DNA of 22,850 nucleotides, from positions 1 to 22,850 of the forward strand of contig JACRIH010000533.1 of the NCBI GenBank assembly GCA_016235885.1. The letters run 5' to 3'. The position numbers and the translations under genes were made by a program. Source of the stretch: Planctomycetales bacterium. GTDB lineage: Bacteria > Planctomycetota > Planctomycetia > Planctomycetales > Planctomycetaceae. Positions 1 to 21,355 of this stretch are shown in pieces; within the stretch, counting starts at the first letter, position 1; each line of letters opens with the position of its first letter. The notes below the pieces were generated by a model. It saw only the letters and a list, made by a program, of their open reading frames with translations, was not told the origin of the DNA and searched no databases.

Positions 1-46
1 CCTGCCTTTGAAGCAGTGAATGGAGGTTCGATTCCTTCTCCCCGAA
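1..46 (+). tRNA. tRNA-Gln (anticodon TTG), 5' end cut by the window edge
   Basis: Anticodon stem-loop ctgc-CTTTGAA-gcag with U33. T-arm GGAGG-TTCGATT-CCTTC. Acceptor 3' strand tctccccga. No encoded CCA. Confidence 0.7.
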
Positions 47-91
47 CTTGCGAACTTGCGACTGGCAGCGTGTGTCAAATGTCGCGAACAC

Positions 92-166
92 TCCGGGGCG
101 GTTGCTGCTGGTAGCAACGTCTGGCTCTGAACCAGAAGGTCGTTGGTTCGATTCCAACCCCCGGAA
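92..166 (+). tRNA. tRNA-Gln (anticodon CTG)
   Basis: Acceptor tccgggg/ccccgga is fully complementary. Anticodon arm tctgg-CTCTGAA-ccaga. T-arm GTTGG-TTCGATT-CCAAC. Length 75 nt. Confidence 0.8.
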
Positions 167-170
167 TTGA

Positions 171-243
171 AGGCAGAAGGATGAAATCGCTCGTGACCCC
201 AACCACTCGCCAAACGTTCATCCTTCATCCTTCTGCCTTTTTT
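171..243 (+). terminator. Inter-tRNA hairpin followed by a T5 run (terminator-like or processing element)
   Basis: 15-bp perfect inverted repeat aggcagaaggatgaa / ttcatccttctgcct (171-185 and 224-238) with a 38-nt loop. Followed by ttttt immediately before tRNA-Ser. Confidence 0.35.
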
Positions 244-329
244 GGAAGTCATCCGGCCGGATGAGGGACCTGTCCCGAAAACAGGTGGCGAGTTGAACTC
301 GCTTGTGGGTTCGAGTCCCACGGCTTCCG
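244..329 (+). tRNA. tRNA-Ser (anticodon CGA), class II with long variable arm
   Basis: Acceptor ggaagtc/ggcttcc. Anticodon arm cctgt-CCCGAAA-acagg. Variable-arm hairpin gcgag-ttgaa-ctcgc. T-arm GTGGG-TTCGAGT-CCCAC. Position 33 reads as C, which is atypical. Confidence 0.65.
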
Positions 330-519
330 CTGAACAAGGGCTCATGGTCCAACAGCAAGACGTCGGTCCTGCAAACCGGAGATTCGGGTGCAACTCACGG
401 TGGGTCCATTTTGAAGAGTTGAAGAGTGAAGGGCGAAGGGTGGAGGGCGAAAACAAAGTTGGGCAACCACGTCGTGGTACGCTTCGTGTTTTTCATTCTT
501 CTCACTTCACTCTTCATCC

Positions 520-591
520 GGTCCCGTGGTCCAGCGGCGACGACTTCTGGCCTACACCCAGACAACGATGGTTCGAGTCCATCCGGGATCA
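520..591 (+). tRNA. tRNA-Val (anticodon TAC)
   Basis: Acceptor ggtcccg/cgggatc (one G-U pair). Anticodon arm tctgg-CCTACAC-ccaga. T-arm GATGG-TTCGAGT-CCATC. 3-bp D-stem; C at position 33. Confidence 0.65.
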
Positions 592-599
592 TATTGATT

Positions 600-673
600 G
601 TCCTCGCGGAGCAGCTCGGAATGCTCGCCACCCTGTCACGGTGGAGACGTGGGTTCAAATCCCATCGAGGACG
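600..673 (+). tRNA. tRNA-Asp (anticodon GTC)
   Basis: Acceptor gtcctcg/cgaggac. D-stem gagc/gctc. Anticodon arm ccacc-CTGTCAC-ggtgg. T-arm GTGGG-TTCAAAT-CCCAT. Confidence 0.8.
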
Positions 674-696
674 TTTGGTGATGTGATATGTGATTC

Positions 697-778
697 GCGT
701 CGGCTGGGCATCGGCGTGCCCAAGTGGCCGTAACCCACCCGCCTTCGGGCAATGCAGGTTCGACTCCTGCTCGACGCA
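697..778 (+). tRNA. tRNA-Tyr (anticodon GTA), long variable arm
   Basis: Acceptor gcgtcgg/tcgacgc. D-stem gggc/gccc. Anticodon loop CCGTAAC. Variable arm gcc-ttcg-ggc. T-arm GCAGG-TTCGACT-CCTGC. Confidence 0.65.
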
Positions 779-785
779 TTGTTTC

Positions 786-858
786 GGCCCGTTCGTCTAT
801 TGGTACAGGACGCCAGCTTCTCACGCTGGCAAGGCGAGTTCGATTCTCGCACGGGTCA
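786..858 (+). tRNA. tRNA-Glu (anticodon CTC)
   Basis: Acceptor ggcccgt/acgggtc. D-arm gtctattggtacaggac resembles canonical tRNA-Glu. Anticodon arm ccagc-TTCTCAC-gctgg. T-arm GGCGAG-TTCGATT-CTCGC. Confidence 0.8.
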
Positions 859-938
859 TCTACGAGTATTTGTGTAGCCCCTGCCCTCGTGGCCGGCACA
901 AGGCCGGCGGCTACGACGGCCAGATTGATGGAAGATTC

Positions 939-1021
939 GACCGAGTGGTGAAATTGGTAGACACGCGACGCTCAGAACGTCGAGCCGTCAAGGCATGGGA
1001 GTTCGAGTCTCCCCTTGGTCA
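939..1021 (+). tRNA. tRNA-Leu (anticodon CAG), class II
   Basis: Acceptor gaccgag/cttggtc. D-arm tggtgaaattggtagacac is typical of tRNA-Leu. Anticodon arm cgacg-CTCAGAA-cgtcg. Variable-arm stem gcc/ggc. T-arm GGGAG-TTCGAGT-CTCCC. Confidence 0.85.
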
Positions 1022-1106
1022 TCGTTATCGACGCAGGTGAGCCAGTGCTCAGCCGAGGCTCATAACCTCAGCCCGCCGGGTGCGACCCCCGGACCTGCCA
1101 CTTGCC

Positions 1107-1176
1107 GTAGGTCAGGCTTTCCAGCCTGACTCGTTGGGCTGTCAACACACAGGTCAGGCTGGAAAGCCTGACCTAC
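1107..1176. repeat. Nested-palindrome (BIME-like) element between tRNA-Leu and tRNA-Ser
   Basis: 24-bp arms gtaggtcaggctttccagcctgac / gtcaggctggaaagcctgacctac are exact reverse complements with a 22-nt spacer. Each arm also contains its own 8-bp palindrome gtcaggct..agcctgac. Confidence 0.6.
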
Positions 1177-1190
1177 GACAAGATCCTCTC

Positions 1191-1276
1191 GGAAGGTAGC
1201 CGGATACGGTTGGCCGGGCCGCACTGCTAACGCGGCTCTCGTCACTGAGATGAGGGTTCGAATCCCTTGCCTTCCG
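1191..1276 (+). tRNA. tRNA-Ser (anticodon GCT), class II
   Basis: Acceptor ggaaggt/gccttcc (one G-U). D-stem ccgg/ccgg. Anticodon loop CTGCTAA. Variable-arm stem tctc/gaga. T-arm GAGGG-TTCGAAT-CCCTT. Confidence 0.75.
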
Positions 1277-1380
1277 CTGAATGTTTGTTTCGTGACATGG
1301 TGTTCGTGGTGTACCGGTGTGCATGCGACTCTGTGAAAGTCGAGGCGGTGGGTTCAACTCCCCTCGAACACCCTGCTGTG

Positions 1381-1490
1381 AATGATGAATTTCGAATGAC
1401 GAATGACGAACCGGCACCGATGCCGTTCGAGCATTCGACATTCGTCATTCTTTCGTCATTCGGATTTCGTCCTTCGTCATTCCCCCACAG
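1381..1490. repeat. Inverted blocks of tandem decamers GAATGACGAA ... TTCGTCATTC (copy 1)
   Basis: Left block gaatgacgaatgacgaa; right block ttcgtcattctttcgtcattc...ttcgtcattc, in opposed orientation. Lies immediately upstream of the HNH gene start. Confidence 0.7.
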
Positions 1491-1497
1491 GTGCATC

Positions 1498-2091
1498 ATG
1501 TCGGCGGTTCTTACTCGACCAACGCTCGTGCTCAACCGGAACTGGCAACCGGTGGGTGTGGCCTCGGTGTCGCGCTCGCTGATCCTGTTGTGGAACGACA
1601 ACGCGCGCGTGGTCGATCCGGCGGACTTCCGGCTGTACACGTGGAGCGATTGGTCGCGAATGATTCCGCTCGCGGATGAACCGTTCATCCAGGCGGTTCG
1701 GTCGCGGCTGCGGGTGCCGGAAGTGATTTCGCTGACGAACTTCGACCGCGTTCCGATGAACGGGGTGACGTTCAGCCGGCGGAACATTTATCGGCGTGAC
1801 CGTTACACGTGTCAGTACTGCGGTTCGCAGCCGGGGAGCGAAGAACTGACGATCGATCACGTCCTGCCGCGGGCGCAGGGGGGAACTTCGATGTGGGAGA
1901 ACTGTGTTCTCGCATGCGTCGCTTGCAACAAGCGCAAGGCCGACCGCACGCCCGAACAGGCGCACATGCCGCTGCACAAGCGGCCGGTTCGTCCCTCATG
2001 GAAGCCGCACTACGCCACGCGCGGAGTCCGGATCGACAGTTGGTCCCGCTTCCTCAGTGAAGCGTATTGGAATGTGGAACTGAATGCGTAG
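1498..2091 (+). CDS. HNH endonuclease (COG1403 / McrA-like), 197 aa
   Basis: Translation starts MSAVLTRPTLVLNRNWQPV, the N-terminal motif typical of this family. C-terminal motif CQYCGS...LTIDHVLPRAQGG...WENCVLACVACNKRK has the C-X2-C...DH...N...C-X2-C arrangement. AGGTG lies 7 nt upstream of the ATG. The long ORF in the track begins inside the repeat/tRNA region and was trimmed. Confidence 0.85.
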   Translation: MSAVLTRPTLVLNRNWQPVGVASVSRSLILLWNDNARVVDPADFRLYTWSDWSRMIPLADEPFIQAVRSRLRVPEVISLTNFDRVPMNGVTFSRRNIYRRDRYTCQYCGSQPGSEELTIDHVLPRAQGGTSMWENCVLACVACNKRKADRTPEQAHMPLHKRPVRPSWKPHYATRGVRIDSWSRFLSEAYWNVELNA

Positions 2092-2109
2092 CGGAAAGCT
2101 TTCAGCAAT

Positions 2110-2171
2110 CAGCGGTCAGCGATCAGCCAATCGGTTGAGGCTGACTGTTGAAAGCTGATCGCTGACCGCTG
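2110..2171 (+). terminator. Long hairpin downstream of the HNH gene
   Basis: 18-bp perfect inverted repeat cagcggtcagcgatcagc / gctgatcgctgaccgctg around a 26-nt loop. There is no clear U-tract, so function as a terminator is uncertain. Confidence 0.35.
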
Positions 2172-2175
2172 CCAC

Positions 2176-2245
2176 ACGAGTGTGCTCCTGGGAGAGCCAG
2201 TGGTCTCCAAAGCCGCTTCATGAGGTTCGAATCCTCACACTCGTG
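2176..2245 (+). other. Degenerate tRNA-like element (possible tRNA pseudogene or integration-site remnant)
   Basis: Perfect acceptor pairing acgagtg/cactcgt and canonical T-arm TGAGG-TTCGAAT-CCTCA. No canonical anticodon arm can be folded, and the element is only 70 nt long. Confidence 0.4.
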
Positions 2246-2248
2246 CTG

Positions 2249-2296
2249 TTGGAGTCCCGGCTTCAGCCGGTCTGCCGCCTGAAGGCGGGACTCCAA
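2249..2296 (+). other. Compact three-way-junction structure following the tRNA-like element
   Basis: Outer stem ttggagtc/gactccaa encloses two hairpins, ccggc-ttca-gccgg and ccgcc-tgaa-ggcgg. Confidence 0.35.
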
Positions 2297-2299
2297 CCT

Positions 2300-2373
2300 G
2301 CCGACGTGGCTCGACTGAGAAAGGCATCTGTCCCGTAAACAGACTCATGCTGGTGCGAATCCAGTCGTCGGCT
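2300..2373 (+). tRNA. tRNA-Thr-like (anticodon CGT), non-canonical D-arm
   Basis: Perfect acceptor gccgacg/cgtcggc. Anticodon arm tctgt-CCCGTAA-acaga. T-arm GCTGG-TGCGAAT-CCAGT (G at position 54). D-arm cannot be folded canonically and position 33 is C. Confidence 0.5.
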
Positions 2374-2394
2374 CTTGGTTCAAAGTTTGTTTTG

Positions 2395-2512
2395 GGAGTG
2401 CTCCGGCTTGACGGAGCTTTGGAATTTTTTGCGAAGCACTTTCGCCATCCTATAGAAACGGAAAGAAAGTCGCTCCGCGACAATTCCAAAGCTCCGTCAA
2501 GCCGGAGCACTC
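2395..2512. repeat. MITE-like palindromic element with 32-bp perfect terminal inverted repeats
   Basis: ggagtgctccggcttgacggagctttggaatt (2395-2426) is the exact reverse complement of 2481-2512. Interior carries hairpins gcgaa..ttcgc and GTCGCTCCGCGAC. This element generates the mirror-image ORFs 2347..2598 (+) and 2235..2672 (-). Confidence 0.75.
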
Positions 2513-2518
2513 CAAAGT

Positions 2519-2589
2519 TGCCCTGCGGGTGTGCCGGAAGCATGACAGACTTCGAATCTGTCGGACGAGGTTCGATTCCTCGGTGGGGT
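2519..2589 (+). tRNA. tRNA-Arg-like (anticodon TCG), weak acceptor stem
   Basis: Anticodon arm acaga-CTTCGAA-tctgt. T-arm CGAGG-TTCGATT-CCTCG. Acceptor gccctgc/gtggggt needs three G-U pairs and the D-arm is poor. Followed by tttttt. Confidence 0.45.
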
Positions 2590-2599
2590 GTTTTTTGAA

Positions 2600-2670
2600 C
2601 GTCCTCGGAGTGTGGTGGATGCATGCGACCGTGCGAAGGTCGAAGATCAGGTTCGACTCCTGACGGGGAC
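2600..2670 (+). tRNA. tRNA-Arg-like (anticodon reads GCG, unusual)
   Basis: Acceptor gtcctcg/cggggac. Anticodon arm cgacc-GTGCGAA-ggtcg. T-arm TCAGG-TTCGACT-CCTGA. D-arm has G-U pairs; anticodon GCG is not a standard bacterial Arg isoacceptor. Confidence 0.45.
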
Positions 2671-2719
2671 ATCCGTGTTCGATCCGTGTTTCATCCGTGG
2701 CAAAAAAACAATTCCTCCC

Positions 2720-2791
2720 GACGCTGTTGCCGGATGGTCCGGCCACTGTCTGCAAAGCAGTTCTTCGTGGGTTCGATTCCCACCGGCGTCT
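2720..2791 (+). tRNA. tRNA-Cys (anticodon GCA)
   Basis: Acceptor gacgctg/cggcgtc. D-stem gccg/cggc. Anticodon arm actgt-CTGCAAA-gcagt. T-arm GTGGG-TTCGATT-CCCAC. Confidence 0.8.
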
Positions 2792-2801
2792 TCAAGGAAA
2801 A

Positions 2802-2842
2802 GTAGGGTGGGACCAGCTCGCGAAGCGAGTGCAGGCCCACCA
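2802..2842. repeat. REP-like unit GTAGGGTGGGAC..GAAGCG..GGCCCACCA (single copy)
   Basis: Same motif order as the palindromic dimer at 8206-8290. Contains a ctcgc-gaa-gcgag hairpin. Confidence 0.55.
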
Positions 2843-2992
2843 TTGCCGAGATGATGATTCGTCATGACCAGACACGAGCAATTTCAAGCAAGGTTGACGC
2901 AGCCGGGCCAGCGGCGCATCAAGACCTGTCCTGTTCGCAGGCGGTTGTCCGAATGTGTTCCGCGAGTGGGTTCTAACGAAGGCTGTGTCGGC

Positions 2993-3065
2993 GAGTGGTT
3001 AGCTCAGTGGGTAGAGCACCAGACCGTGAATCTGGCTGTCACAGGTTCGACTCCTGTACCAACTG
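2993..3065 (+). tRNA. tRNA-His-like (anticodon GTG), imperfect acceptor stem
   Basis: Perfect D-arm agctcagtgggtagagc. Anticodon arm ccaga-CCGTGAA-tctgg. T-arm ACAGG-TTCGACT-CCTGT. The acceptor strands gagtggt/accaact have two adjacent mismatches. Confidence 0.5.
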
Positions 3066-3480
3066 CGGTGTGAAAAACCGCTCCAAAACGCGAAAGCGTT
3101 TACCAACCGGCCCGACGGTGGCGGGCGAATGATTGATCTGCGGATGCTTCGTTGATGTGCTCTCGTAATTGAGTGCTGCTCGACGTCGGCCGAAAGGCTG
3201 GCGGATGAGTCAGCGGATTGCGGGCCGTGCATCGCGAACATCGGCAACGTGACGGTTTGCTTTGCAGGGCGTGGATTCAGCCATCGCAAATTTCGGACAG
3301 ACGGTCGTGGATGCTGGTCGGACGCTCGCGTGACATTTGTCCGCGAGCGACAAAACCAGACGAAGCGACCGAACCTCCGCAGCTCGCGATGGCTCAAACG
3401 TCTCTCCGCATCCCGGCGCGGGATTAACAATCGTTTCGCCACCTGACGGCAATTCAACTTCCTCTCCACAGCGGGGGAGA

Positions 3481-3660
3481 GGACGGGAGTGGGGAATGAC
3501 GAATTCCGAATGACGAATGACGAATGAATGACAAAGCTCGAATGACGAACACGAGCCTTCACTTCGAGTTCACTGCCTGAATGCGTCACCGGCGAATTCG
3601 GCATTCGGCATTCGTCATTCGGAATTCATTCGTCATTCGTGCTTCCGCCATTCGTCATTC
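3481..3660. repeat. Inverted blocks of tandem decamers GAATGACGAA ... TTCGTCATTC (copy 2)
   Basis: Left block has four or more gaatgacgaa-like units; right block has cattcgtcattcg units in opposite orientation. Upstream of the SPFH gene. Creates the HSSFVI-repeat artefact in the minus-strand ORF 2999..3604. Confidence 0.7.
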
Positions 3661-3671
3661 CACACCGCCCC

Positions 3672-3707
3672 TCACCCCCGACCCCTCTCCCCCAAAGGGG
3701 AGAGGGG
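3672..3707. repeat. REP-like hairpin CCCTCACCCCCGACCCCTCTCCCCC-aaa-GGGGAGAGGGG (copy 1)
   Basis: Stem cccctctcccc / ggggagagggg. A near-identical copy lies at 19474-19509. Its 3' arm, ggagaggggagaag, sits directly before the SPFH ATG and acts as a Shine-Dalgarno sequence. Confidence 0.65.
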
Positions 3708-3712
3708 AGAAG

Positions 3713-4840
3713 ATGAAACGAAAGGACGCTCTCATGTACCCGATCAATGTCATCAAGGTCCGCGACTACGAAATGGGACTCCGGTTCCGAGACGGAGAAT
3801 TCCGCGGACTGTTCGCGCCGGGCCGGCACTGGCTGTTCGACCCGCTCCGCAAGGTGCGCGTGGCTGTCGTGTCGCAGCGCGATCCGTGGCTGGTTCACGA
3901 GAAGCTCGACCTGATCGTCAAGTCGGGTGCGCTGCGCGACCGCGCGGTCGTGCTCGATCTGAAGGATCATCAGCGGGCGCTGATCTGGATCGACGGTCGA
4001 TTCAGCCACGTGCTGCCGCCTGGTCTGTACGCGTACTGGAACTCGCTGCGCGACGTGTCGGTCGAAGTGATCGATGCGCGCGACGTTCGATTCCAGCACA
4101 AGGATCTGTCGGTGATCGCGCGGTCGCCGCTGGTGGATCGAGTTCTCGAATTCATCACGGTCGAAGCGGGTCACGCCGGCGTGCTGCTCCGGGATGGCGA
4201 CTTCGTGGAAACGCTGCCGCCAGGCCGGTACGCGTTTTGGAAGAACGTCGCGCAGAGCAAGCTGATCCCGGTGGATCAGCGCGAAGCGATGCTCGATGTG
4301 GCCGGTCAGGAAATCATGACGTCGGACAAGGTCACGCTGCGCCTCAACGCCATCGTGACGTTCCGTGTTGTCGATCCGCGCCGCGCCGTCAGCATTGTGG
4401 ATGACGCCCGTCAGGCACTGTACCGCGAGGCACAGCTCGCCCTGCGAGCCGTCATCGGCACGCGCGAACTCGACCTGTTCCTGACCGACAAGGACTCCGT
4501 CGCGAAGGACTTGGAAGAGATCGTCCGGCGTCGCGTGTCGGCGTTTGGTCTGGAAGTCGTTTCGATCGGTATCCGCGACGTGATCCTGCCGGGCGACATG
4601 AAGGATCTGATGAACAAGGTGACGGAAGCCAAGAAGGCAGCCGAAGCAAACCTGATCGCCCGTCGTGAGGAAACGGCGGCGATGCGCAGTCAGGCCAACA
4701 CGGCCAAGCTGCTGGAAGGCAACCCAATGCTAATGCGGCTGCGCGAACTGGAAGTTCTCGAAAAGGTCGCGGCATCGTCCAAGCTCAACGTCGTGCTGGG
4801 CGAAAAGGGGTTGGCCGATCGGATTGTCAACCTGTTGTGA
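3713..4840 (+). CDS. SPFH / band-7 (stomatin-prohibitin-like) domain protein with three N-terminal repeats, 375 aa
   Basis: C-terminal half (IVTFRVVDPRRAVSIVDDARQALYREAQLALRAVIGTRELD...) has the SPFH pattern. N-terminal half has three repeats of about 45 aa, each containing LPPGxYAxW. Start chosen at ATG 3713 after the GGAGAGGGGAG sequence; the longer track ORF begins inside the repeat array. Confidence 0.85.
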   Translation: MKRKDALMYPINVIKVRDYEMGLRFRDGEFRGLFAPGRHWLFDPLRKVRVAVVSQRDPWLVHEKLDLIVKSGALRDRAVVLDLKDHQRALIWIDGRFSHVLPPGLYAYWNSLRDVSVEVIDARDVRFQHKDLSVIARSPLVDRVLEFITVEAGHAGVLLRDGDFVETLPPGRYAFWKNVAQSKLIPVDQREAMLDVAGQEIMTSDKVTLRLNAIVTFRVVDPRRAVSIVDDARQALYREAQLALRAVIGTRELDLFLTDKDSVAKDLEEIVRRRVSAFGLEVVSIGIRDVILPGDMKDLMNKVTEAKKAAEANLIARREETAAMRSQANTAKLLEGNPMLMRLRELEVLEKVAASSKLNVVLGEKGLADRIVNLL

Positions 4841-21138: not shown

Positions 21139-21144
21139 ACTGTT

Positions 21145-21355
21145 GCCCCAACGGGGCGCAATTCGATAGCCCAGGGCGCAGCCCTGGGTTGGCAGTTGCA
21201 TCCATCACACGAGCCCCAATGGGGCGCAATATTGGGGATTCCCATATCCTCGACTGCGTCCTCACGCGAATTTCGCCCCGTTGGGGCTATCGCACCAATG
21301 ACCGCCGTTACCCAGGGCTGCGCCCTGGGCTATCGAATCGCGCCCCTTCGGGACT
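21145..21355. repeat. BIME-like cluster of GC-rich hairpins between the DUF1553 and DUF1501 genes
   Basis: 25-bp perfect inverted repeat gatagcccagggcgcagccctgggt (21165-21189) / acccagggctgcgccctgggctatc (21310-21334). Four small hairpins GCCCC-NNN-GGGGC lie in alternating orientation. Confidence 0.7.

Follow-up and report, generated by a model that had tools for sequence, protein, structure and literature searches.

The window analysed here is a stretch of 22,850 nucleotides from a Planctomycetaceae bacterium. Its positions 1-3066 hold 17 co-oriented tRNA or tRNA-like elements, about 5.5 per kb (17 in 3.07 kb), together with one gene for a 197-aa HNH nuclease (Table 1). ARAGORN predicts 15 tRNAs between 92 and 3066, on the plus strand only, and Rfam adds two more: one tRNA at 338-408 and, at 1-46, the 3' part of another, which is cut by the window edge, so that the array extends past the 5' end of the window. 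A long tRNA array on the chromosome (L-array or tRNA array unit) is thus represented here by its 3' part. The original prediction described about 15 such genes on one strand in 3 kb, with a gene for a 197-aa HNH endonuclease, and this agrees with what was found; all 14 of its anticodons were recovered, Gln-TTG being the cut tRNA, while Ala-TGC and Trp-CCA were absent from its list. The last element, called His-GTG by ARAGORN, was rejected as a normal tRNA-His for its acceptor stem of 4 bp and is classed as tRNA-like; its D arm, anticodon stem and T arm are conserved, and its anticodon loop is hypervariable among orthologs.

Table 1. Features of the array and its downstream neighbour, in window coordinates (L001, L003 and L035 are related planctomycete arrays)
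Feature	Position	Strand	Evidence
tRNA-Gln(TTG), 3' part	1..46	+	Rfam tRNA model positions 26-71, 27.9 bits, 5'-cut; 41/48 positions as in L001 Gln-TTG
tRNA-Gln(CTG)	92..166	+	ARAGORN; Rfam 33.9 bits; L001 ortholog 92% identity
tRNA-Ser(CGA), C33	244..330	+	ARAGORN; 77/87 positions as in L001 Ser-TGA
tRNA-Ala(TGC), C33	338..408	+	Rfam tRNA 38.3 bits, no ARAGORN call; 64/71 positions as in L001 Ala-TGC
tRNA-Val(TAC), C33	520..591	+	ARAGORN; Rfam 52.7 bits; 96-97% identity to L001, L003, L035
tRNA-Asp(GTC)	599..674	+	ARAGORN; Rfam 51 bits
tRNA-Tyr(GTA), C33, long variable arm	697..778	+	ARAGORN; orthologs 87-90% identity
tRNA-Glu(CTC)	786..858	+	ARAGORN; Rfam 54.2 bits
tRNA-Leu(CAG)	939..1021	+	ARAGORN; Rfam 53.3 bits
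Palindromic element, 30-nt arms, 97% complementary	1101..1182	.	Repeat search
tRNA-Ser(GCT)	1191..1277	+	ARAGORN; orthologs 90-92% identity
tRNA-His(GTG), encoded G-1 at 1299, C73	1299..1373	+	ARAGORN; Rfam 43.6 bits
Inverted heptad-repeat element (GAATGAC units), between tRNA-His and HNH gene	1380..1482	.	Repeat search
HNH nuclease gene, 197 aa	1498..2091	+	Pfam HNH 9e-15, HNH_5 2e-14
Perfect 18-nt inverted repeat, directly 3' of HNH stop codon	2110..2171	.	Repeat search
tRNA-Trp(CCA)	2176..2246	+	ARAGORN; Rfam 30.1 bits
Hairpin element, 23-nt arms	2248..2297	.	Repeat search
tRNA-Thr(CGT), C33	2300..2374	+	ARAGORN; Rfam 38.8 bits
Long palindromic element, 52-nt arms	2392..2516	.	Repeat search
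tRNA-Arg(TCG), irregular, 4-bp T stem	2520..2590	+	ARAGORN; Rfam 27.4 bits, below gathering score; orthologs 83-88% identity
tRNA-Arg(GCG), 3-bp D stem	2601..2671	+	ARAGORN only; no Rfam match at E<=1; 15 orthologs 84-89% identity
tRNA-Cys(GCA)	2720..2791	+	ARAGORN; Rfam 47.9 bits
tRNA-like element (ARAGORN 'His-GTG')	2993..3066	+	ARAGORN and ortholog comparison
SPFH/Band-7 gene, outside array, context	3581..4840	+	Pfam Band_7 3.7e-31

Palindromic or hairpin elements occupy seven spacer sites (169-240 and 420-516 besides the five in Table 1), as had been predicted; T-runs, also predicted, find no support, since terminator-like sites number 4 against 4.1 expected and all lie on the minus strand. 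No promoter or terminator for the array was identified in the window. The element at 1101-1182 sits where related arrays carry a block of Met, Met, Leu-GAG, Val-GAC, Thr, Ala and Ala. Similar palindromes fill the intergenic DNA in the rest of the window, and the GAATGAC heptad returns at 3487-3660 (16 matches against 0.14 expected). These elements had been taken for MITE or REP sequences marking the array, a reading that is not supported, the palindromes being genome-wide and not specific to the array. The tRNAs do lack an encoded CCA, as had been stated; its absence is, however, also the norm of stand-alone planctomycete tRNAs (it is encoded in only 2 of the 387 tRNAs from related loci) and therefore not a sign of degeneracy. 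Palindromic repeats and missing CCA are traits of the genome or lineage, not of the array.

Arrays of at least 10 tRNAs are found in 12 of the 80 planctomycete HNH loci, with a maximum of 43 in L035. Their order is fixed: Phe Glu Pro Pro Ile Lys Ile Lys Thr Gly Pro Asn Ser Gly Gln Gln Ser Ala Val Leu Leu Asp Leu Tyr Glu Leu Met Met Leu Val Thr Ala Ala Ser Arg Ser Arg His lie 5' of the HNH gene, which is followed by Trp Thr Arg Arg Arg Cys. The same order and the His/HNH/Trp slot recur in the closer relatives L093-L096 and in L097 and L098, and the window array is a member of this planctomycete lineage. It is colinear with L001, BLAST matches being confined to the tRNAs and the HNH gene with none in the spacers. 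The window copy has lost a Leu-TAA/TAG block, a Met-to-Ala block and an Arg-TCT/Ser-GGA/Arg-CCT block, and is short of at least 12 members in comparison with L035. Close relatives have larger, smaller or no arrays. On the 91-kb contig of L092, for example, the HNH gene (81% identity) has the same SPFH neighbour, but only Asn, Gln and Arg of the array remain before the HNH gene, with two Cys-GCA calls after it, the second of which coincides with the ortholog of the terminal tRNA-like element; Trp, His and others are missing.

In its full versions the array has tRNAs for all 20 amino acids, the site is chromosomal and beside core genes, and the missing CCA fits the lineage norm, as would be expected if the primary tRNA genes of the organism were gathered in one large operon, as in Firmicutes. 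This is very improbable, since most or all of the array is absent from close relatives and its tRNAs are non-canonical, scoring below the stand-alone tRNAs of the same contigs (61-71 bits for stand-alone tRNAs, mostly 45-65 for array tRNAs, and 27-54 in the window). In L001 a canonical stand-alone tRNA-Arg(TCG) of 71 bits adjoins the array and shares only 53% identity with the Arg-TCG inside it. Planctomycete arrays also carry Arg-GCG, whereas those of Nostoc and Mycolicibacterium carry Arg-ACG, the usual bacterial choice. Array tRNAs would instead constitute a supernumerary, dispensable second set, and, judging from relatives, the window array is probably redundant with the housekeeping set.

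Several tRNAs in the window are weak, namely Arg-TCG (27 bits), Trp (30 bits) and Arg-GCG (no Rfam match); these, with the members lost relative to L035, suggest that parts of the array may be decaying. C33 instead of the near-universal U33 is found in 12% of planctomycete array tRNAs and in 6 of the 17 window elements, and could reflect impaired function rather than adaptation. Such features might be extended to the whole array, which would then be a relic, acquired once, now unused and eroding by deletions and repeat insertions, its tRNAs incipient pseudogenes and only the HNH gene selected. The three lost blocks with palindromic elements in the gaps, the low covariance scores, the C33 elements, the degenerate acceptor stem of the terminal element, and tRNA numbers falling from 43 to 0 in relatives that always retain the HNH gene are consistent with this. 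We nevertheless regard it as unlikely, because the window tRNAs are 73-96% identical to those of L001 despite unalignable spacers and an HNH synonymous divergence of about 0.8. Compensatory changes, moreover, preserve the stems. They affect 8 of 20 pairs among 15 tRNA-Trp orthologs, with almost no broken pairs and with A1-U72 and G73 retained, and 8 of 16 pairs among 18 tRNA-His orthologs, in which G-1 and C73 are conserved. C33 variants recur in orthologs of several genomes and are not randomly scattered: the ccTGCaa loop of tRNA-Ala is also present in L001, and the ccCGTaa loop of tRNA-Thr is common to L001, L007, L016 and L022. The tRNA-Ser(CGA) is orthologous to the Ser-TGA of related arrays, whose TT at positions 33-34 is replaced by CC in the window. 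At the sequence level, array tRNAs retain the cloverleaf and identity elements under selection, unlike the non-aligning spacers. This retention, the erosion in close relatives and the divergence from stand-alone tRNAs together point to a dispensable extra set that is still selected.

The HNH protein has a C-terminal HNH domain of the IscB/Cas9 type and a conserved beta-beta-alpha-beta N-terminal domain that may be PLMP-like. Pfam PF14239 (PLMP) matches 0 of 51 family members, a profile of the N-domain found no IscB in the PDB, and hhalign against the PLMP peptide of DtIsrB was negative. IshB proteins, the smallest IscB/IsrB relatives, are summarized as PLMP plus HNH in about 180 aa (Altae-Tran et al. 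2021, via PMC11610941 and PMC10734217). The planctomycete protein differs from these in that its PLMP is confirmed by no sequence method and the window gene lacks an IS200/605 context; an Rfam search of the window gave no match to omega-RNA (HEARO), and the literature examined on IshB reports no link to tRNA arrays. The gene is under purifying selection (dN/dS 0.05-0.23) and occupies the same slot between His and Trp in at least 15 related loci (62-81% protein identity), and is therefore a fixed component of the array rather than a recent insertion. The idea that it was inserted into the middle of the array is thus contradicted, also by the presence of this array-accompanying family in other phyla. 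Its homolog all8564 (34% identity over residues 2-166, both domains, E 6e-21) lies directly upstream of 24 tRNAs on pCC7120delta of Nostoc sp. PCC 7120, another (33%) lies inside the 29-tRNA array of Mycolicibacterium pCBMA213_1, and others are found in tRNA clusters of phages Tunturi_5, Mx1 and Mimi. Comparison of these proteins identifies the HNH as an integral, selected array component homologous to the array HNHs of cyanobacteria, mycobacterial plasmids and large phages. The gene is near-ubiquitous in Planctomycetota with or without arrays, and 44 of the 80 planctomycete HNH loci retain it without any tRNA.

These homologies might also suggest that array and HNH gene are cargo of a phage, prophage or other element, recently inserted, with the HNH as a homing endonuclease that spreads the array. 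Large phages and plasmids have the same family in their tRNA clusters (13 of 80 viral-contig HNH loci have at least 3 tRNAs within 5 kb), and the nearest non-planctomycete relative, with 43% identity, is in a 595-kb phage genome. Two planctomycete-order arrays (L097, L098) are on contigs called viral by IMG/VR, and T4 provides a known case of SegB-type homing of tRNA regions, as cited in PMC8421152. Flanks vary between arrays (L007 has a transposase next to it, L001 an integrase fragment), and array-borne and array-less HNH copies occur together in two metagenome-assembled genomes (L032/L037 and L017/L021); some horizontal movement is thus likely, and the history may not be purely vertical. 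Recent insertion as mobile cargo is nonetheless quite doubtful for the window, where GC content is even and no integrase, transposase or att site was found, and where the DNA downstream of the array holds an SPFH gene plus the nuo operon but neither mobility nor phage genes. An SPFH gene at about 70% identity follows the array in L003, L005, L006, L012, L032 and L062, and a Band_7 gene in L092, L094 and L097 as well. This array-HNH-SPFH arrangement, which spans several HNH subclades, points to vertical inheritance in the clade rather than a recent transposition; the original prediction had called the array possibly transposed. The contigs called viral have SPFH or Ro60 by the array, like chromosomal loci, and lack phage hallmark genes in the array flanks. 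In array-less lineages the HNH gene is intact and under purifying selection, unlike homing endonuclease genes, whose pattern is sporadic and decaying. T4 SegB resembles it as a nuclease gene inside a tRNA cluster, proposed to promote cluster inheritance or amplification (cited in PMC8421152; PMC13096335); SegB is a GIY-YIG homing endonuclease and not an HNH, whereas the planctomycete gene behaves as a conserved resident.

Long tRNA arrays of accessory type have been described (PMC4758250, PMC8421152, PMC5966550), and the assignment of the window array to this type holds. L-arrays are described as supernumerary, and in Anabaena the trn operon and all8564 are induced together when translation is stressed (Santamaria-Gomez et al. 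2021, PMC8421152). The planctomycete array resembles the plasmid delta L-array of Anabaena/Nostoc sp. PCC 7120 in being long and co-oriented, with supernumerary-type, partly deviant tRNAs, a linked HNH of the same family, and a neighbourhood rich in RNA-related genes, Ro60/TROVE lying beside related planctomycete arrays. It differs in its chromosomal rather than plasmid location, in the HNH between His and Trp rather than upstream, in gene order (unrelated except for the Gln-Gln pair), in Arg-GCG instead of Arg-ACG, and in its C33 (0 of 24 in Nostoc) and CCA (which planctomycete arrays essentially never encode, against 8 of 24 tRNAs in the Nostoc array); regulation by translational stress is shown for the Nostoc array. 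In mycobacteria, the HNH is the most widespread CDS of the arrays (Morgado & Vicente 2018, PMC5966550), and it is embedded in every M. avium array type, whose anticodons are redundant to chromosomal tRNAs (Yano et al. 2026, PMC12803027). Mycobacterial array units, known from plasmids, phages and chromosomes, share with the planctomycete array the single embedded HNH gene conserved across array types (PMC5966550, PMC12803027), the redundant anticodons, and D and anticodon arms differing from housekeeping tRNAs; the pCBMA213_1 array also has C33 in 4 of 29 tRNAs. They differ in host phylum and gene order, in lying on plasmids or phages with extra elements such as the GOLLD RNA in L083, and in that the HNH of Planctomycetota is near-ubiquitous even without arrays.

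The original observation is confirmed and its interpretation partly supported. The refuting case that it named, relatives with the same array but no HNH gene, did not hold, for relatives have array and HNH gene together. Taken as a whole, the locus is probably best explained as an extra, selected tRNA array with a resident HNH and a possible role as a reserve pool. Its genes would be co-transcribed into a precursor that RNase P and a 3' endonuclease cleave, and CCA would be added later, the rule for every tRNA of the lineage. Rather than a classical selfish homing endonuclease, the HNH would be a resident gene whose putative nucleic-acid-cutting role is tied to the array. Anticodon-loop changes in phage tRNAs evade nucleases (PMC10264068), and by analogy the deviations in the anticodon loop, among them the frequent C33, would suit tRNAs that evade anticodon-loop nucleases. 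The array type is known from cyanobacteria, mycobacteria and large phages, and the planctomycete locus is a new example of it rather than a new kind of system. Its tRNAs may, in analogy to the trn operon of Anabaena and to the arrays of phages and plasmids, form a reserve for times when translation or the normal tRNA pool is compromised.

The feature is genuine and clearly defined, a planctomycete member of an already known class in which long tRNA arrays are linked to an HNH gene. Over the 22.8-kb window ARAGORN placed 15 tRNA genes within 92-3066, every one on the + strand, and none in the rest. Ten of these regions were confirmed by Rfam at gathering score. Rfam also contributed tRNA-Ala(TGC) and, when searched more permissively, a 3'-partial tRNA-Gln(TTG), giving 17 elements in 3.07 kb and an array that extends upstream of the window; as the array is cut at its 5' end, 17 is a partial count, compared with 32-43 tRNAs in colinear orthologous arrays. 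ARAGORN, Rfam and alignment to L001, the planctomycete locus with the most similar array, together recovered all 14 anticodons listed in the original prediction, which had overlooked Ala-TGC and Trp-CCA. Published L-arrays, or tRNA array units, are defined as single arrays of 20 or more tRNA genes, co-oriented, with short spacers and a density of 2 or more per kb, which are patchily present among related species, consist of supernumerary tRNAs and are linked to an HNH gene of the all8564 family (Tran 2016; Santamaria-Gomez 2021). The density and single orientation found here agree with this definition, and the HNH gene belongs to the all8564 family.

Features of the window and of related loci (coordinates are those of the named sequence)
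Feature	Sequence	Position	Strand	Remarks
tRNA-Gln(TTG), 3' part	window	1-46	+	permissive Rfam search; identity from L001 alignment
tRNA-Ser(CGA)	window	244-330	+	C33
tRNA-Ala(TGC)	window	338-408	+	Rfam addition; identity from L001 alignment; C33
tRNA-Val(TAC)	window	520-591	+	C33
tRNA-Tyr(GTA)	window	697-778	+	C33
GAATGAC heptad-repeat palindrome	window	1380-1482		just 5' of HNH gene
HNH protein ORF	window	1498-2091	+	197 aa
tRNA-Trp(CCA)	window	2176-2246	+	ARAGORN
tRNA-Thr(CGT)	window	2300-2374	+	C33
tRNA-Arg(GCG)	window	2601-2671	+	no Rfam match
Terminal tRNA-like element	window	2993-3066	+	ARAGORN 'His-GTG'; Rfam 54 bits; C33
GAATGAC palindrome, recurrence	window	3487-3660		overlaps annotated SPFH ORF start
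SPFH/Band-7 gene	window	3581-4840	+	downstream of array
Acido-Lenti-1 RNA motif	window	21144-21188	-	40.7 bits
Acido-Lenti-1 RNA motif	window	21311-21355	+	39.7 bits
Terminal-element orthologue	L092	5676-5740
Terminal-element orthologue	L005	3346-3413
Terminal-element orthologue	L062	6753-6818
Terminal-element orthologue	L094	3062-3126
Terminal-element orthologue	L012	3748-3815
Terminal-element orthologue	L006	2833-2896
Terminal-element orthologue	L032	11336-11408
tRNA with anticodon TCA	L007	10972-11043		at Arg-TCG position; ARAGORN 'SeC'
Schlafen-AlbA_2/STAND NTPase gene	L007	11412-15095		flanks array
Ro60/TROVE homologue	L035	7774-9420		directly 3' of array
Ro60/TROVE homologue	L098	6233-7891		directly 3' of array
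GOLLD RNA	L083	7345-7769		196.7 bits

Searches with the HNH protein yielded 5016 homologous protein clusters and, in species-representative genomes, at least 582 matches. The best 80 of these matches, at 62-80% identity, all come from Planctomycetota, among them Planctomycetaceae, Pirellulaceae, Isosphaeraceae, Thermoguttaceae, Gimesia, Fuerstiella, Schlesneria and Bremerella. A tRNA scan of these 80 loci revealed the patchy distribution typical of L-arrays: 12 contain 10-43 tRNAs, 24 contain 1-9, and 44 contain none, so that most of these planctomycete loci have the HNH gene without an array. Seven array-less loci rechecked with Rfam likewise had no tRNA. The large arrays share one order, which is fullest in planctomycete locus L035 with 43 genes: Phe Glu Pro Ile Lys Ile(TAT) Lys Thr Gly Pro Asn Ser Gly Asn Gln Gln Ser Ala Val Leu Leu Asp Leu Tyr Glu Leu Met Met Leu Val Thr Ala Ala Ser Arg Ser Arg [His], then HNH, followed by Trp Thr Arg(CCG) Arg(TCG) Arg(GCG) Cys. 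The window array is colinear with it, minus Leu-TAA/TAG, the Met-to-Ala block and Arg-TCT/Ser-GGA/Arg-CCT. Small remnants consist most often of exactly the His gene 5' of HNH, or of Trp/Arg-GCG 3' of it. Three metagenomic relatives with 81% HNH identity carry the same locus, one with 5 tRNAs, one with 12 and one with at least 23, two of them with the same SPFH gene downstream, which indicates that in this clade array, HNH and SPFH move as a set and individual tRNA genes are gained and lost. Neighbourhoods are clade-specific, and no universal neighbour of the HNH gene was found among the 80 loci.

Several planctomycete arrays contain Ile-TAT, and those of the window, L001, L032, L035, L075, L097 and L098 contain Arg-GCG, never Arg-ACG, in contrast to the Arg-ACG of the Nostoc and Mycolicibacterium arrays. 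Neither Arg-GCG nor Ile-TAT would need A34-to-inosine or lysidine modification. The TCA-anticodon tRNA in planctomycete locus L007 may be a UGA-reading derivative. Ro60/TROVE homologues lie directly 3' of several planctomycete arrays, L022 included, and phage Mx1 has one close to its HNH-tRNA cluster.

The surroundings of the window array are chromosomal in character. GC content is even (0.56-0.64), the SPFH gene is followed by nuoH, nuoJ, nuoL, nuoM, nuoN and other chromosomal genes, and neither integrase nor transposase is seen in the window; the idea that the array had been transposed thus finds no support. Nor does the proposal that the HNH gene had been inserted into it, as the His / HNH / Trp slot is retained in at least 15 loci. 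Neither sigma-70-like promoters nor intrinsic terminators show enrichment in the window, and the absence of any terminator-like site on its + strand is compatible with a single long transcript, without demonstrating one. The spacers do contain genuine palindromic elements, some of them at positions where related arrays retain tRNA genes. The GAATGAC palindromes include a 17-mer matched 16 times against 0.14 expected. The spacer elements had been taken for MITE/REP elements inserted in the array; comparable ones are found in many of the window's other intergenic regions, and the palindromes are therefore a trait of the genome rather than of the array. Elsewhere in the window, the space between a DUF1501 gene and the one after it contains a 43-nt inverted repeat whose arms are the two Acido-Lenti-1 matches (gathering score 37); the host here is a planctomycete, neither an acidobacterium nor a lentisphaera.

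The array tRNAs are structures under selection, yet atypical. Between the window and L001, HNH dS is about 0.8 and BLAST similarity is confined to the tRNAs and the HNH gene, the spacers having no match; orthologous array tRNAs are still 73-96% identical. Their identities form a mosaic that may point to gene conversion. Across 15 tRNA-Trp orthologues, double compensatory changes affect 8 of 20 base pairs, almost none is broken, and A1-U72 and G73 are retained; across 18 tRNA-His orthologues, covariation is seen in 8 of 16 pairs, with the encoded G-1 and C73 retained. Rfam scores are 27-54 bits for the window array tRNAs, against 61-71 for stand-alone tRNAs in related contigs. The near-universal U33 is replaced by C33 in 46 of 384 array tRNAs, with variants common to orthologues in Val-TAC, Val-GAC, Thr-CGT, Glu-CTC, Leu-GAG and Gly-GCC. 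The Mycolicibacterium plasmid array likewise has C33 (4 of 29 tRNAs), unlike the Nostoc array (0 of 24). Lack of an encoded CCA is no sign of degeneracy, since 385 of 387 tRNAs of related loci lack it, canonical stand-alone ones included.

A housekeeping operon is hard to reconcile with these lower scores and C33 loops, or with relatives in which the array is reduced or absent. L092, a close relative with the same neighbourhood, has an array without the essential isoacceptor Trp, and in L001 a canonical tRNA-Arg(TCG) adjoins the array and shares just 53% identity with the copy inside it. Together with the many array-less HNH loci, these are indirect signs of an extra tRNA set, which would match the redundancy with chromosomal tRNAs reported for published L-arrays and mycobacterial array units (PMC8421152, PMC12803027). 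The original description of an accessory array was correct in kind, and by analogy its function is most likely that of a reserve or nuclease-resistant tRNA pool.

The last element of the array is of a different nature. In the window its acceptor stem is only 4 bp long and has two mismatches. Its orthologues always stand last, after Cys and before SPFH, with D arm, anticodon stem and T arm conserved at 78-89% identity and acceptor ends unpaired, and the 7-nt 'anticodon loop' varies from genome to genome almost without exception. Conserved blocks also occur in the ~500 nt between this element and the SPFH start.

Homologous HNH genes accompany tRNA clusters well beyond the planctomycetes. The HNH protein of the Nostoc/Anabaena 7120 delta plasmid is homologous over both domains (tblastn, 34% identity, E 6e-21), and its gene directly adjoins 24 tRNAs on the upstream side of the trn operon; translational stress induces this gene, all8564, along with the array (PMC8421152). 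In Mycolicibacterium plasmid pCBMA213_1 (L083) a homologue lies within a 29-tRNA array (PMC5966550), where a GOLLD RNA is located just 5' of two tRNAs and HNH. Phages Tunturi_5, Mx1 and Mimi have homologues in tRNA clusters, and among 80 viral-contig loci with a homologue, 13 have at least 3 tRNAs within 5 kb and 8 at least 10. In a large-phage clade (L102, L109, L111, L112, L175) a tRNA-Met(CAT) lies ~100-200 nt upstream of HNH, paralleling the planctomycete tRNA-His before HNH. Array-less members are found next to gluQRS in Sphingomonas and next to metG in Acaryochloris. IMG/VR labels L097 and L098, two contigs with the planctomycete array order, as 'viral'; their flanks look chromosomal, and the label was therefore discarded as evidence of phage origin.

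A free-standing homing endonuclease would be expected to be sporadic and decaying. This family occupies at least 582 loci, its planctomycete tree largely tracks genera, and dN/dS is 0.10-0.23 for array-borne and 0.05-0.08 for array-less copies, which is not normal behaviour for a homing-endonuclease gene. Two metagenome-assembled genomes each contain one array-borne and one array-less copy from different subclades, and array flanks vary (a transposase, an integrase fragment beside a tRNA, Ro60/TROVE, a Schlafen-STAND protein); some transfer between planctomycetes is therefore likely.

The structure of the HNH protein was modelled from 27 close homologues with poor results (pLDDT 53), and from planctomycete and cyanobacterial homologues together with pLDDT 80. 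The best matches of the HNH domain are compact Cas9 and IscB, and there is no RuvC domain, as in IshB proteins of about 180 aa, whose architecture is PLMP plus HNH (PMC11610941, PMC10734217). The N-terminal 95 residues are predicted to form a beta-beta-alpha-beta unit plus extra strands, with a sequence pattern conserved between phyla, and in a sub-threshold HMMER alignment this domain lines up, in register, with the TbaIscB PLMP motif. Against this, hhalign detected no homology between the DtIsrB PLMP peptide and the family, a search with the peptide returned a single protein, the Pfam RRXRR domain is present in 0 of 51 members, and a profile of the N-domain hit no IscB entry in the PDB. The N-domain may thus be PLMP-like, a lead rather than a finding. 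For IshB an IS200/605 context or an associated omega-RNA is expected, whereas the neighbours here are tRNAs, SPFH and nuo genes, and the window has no Rfam match to HEARO or omega-RNA. The PLMP domain of IsrB binds RNA hairpins (PMC9581776). It is conceivable, though we consider it a long shot, that the HNH protein is an IshB-type nuclease whose RNA-binding N-domain would recognize an array tRNA or the terminal element, acting as the functional core by which tRNA arrays are maintained, protected or copied in different phyla and in phages, with C33 tRNAs and the hypervariable-loop element as products of an arms race against anticodon-loop nucleases. If true, this would give the first biological context for IshB, which is the smallest of the IscB and Cas9 relatives and has gone unstudied; if only the PLMP-like N-domain holds, tRNA arrays would be the first recurrent genomic context of IshB-type proteins.

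Points of interest beyond the class itself are the persistence of HNH after array loss, the C33 loops conserved among orthologues, the possibly PLMP-like N-domain and the tRNA-like element with its hypervariable loop. The conserved C33 loops would offer a concrete test of whether array tRNAs are built against anticodon-loop nucleases. Planctomycetes provide a natural series, of fixed order and running from 43 tRNAs down to none, which gives a comparative handle on which tRNAs persist and in which HNH outlives the array, suggesting that the nuclease is more than a simple selfish passenger.
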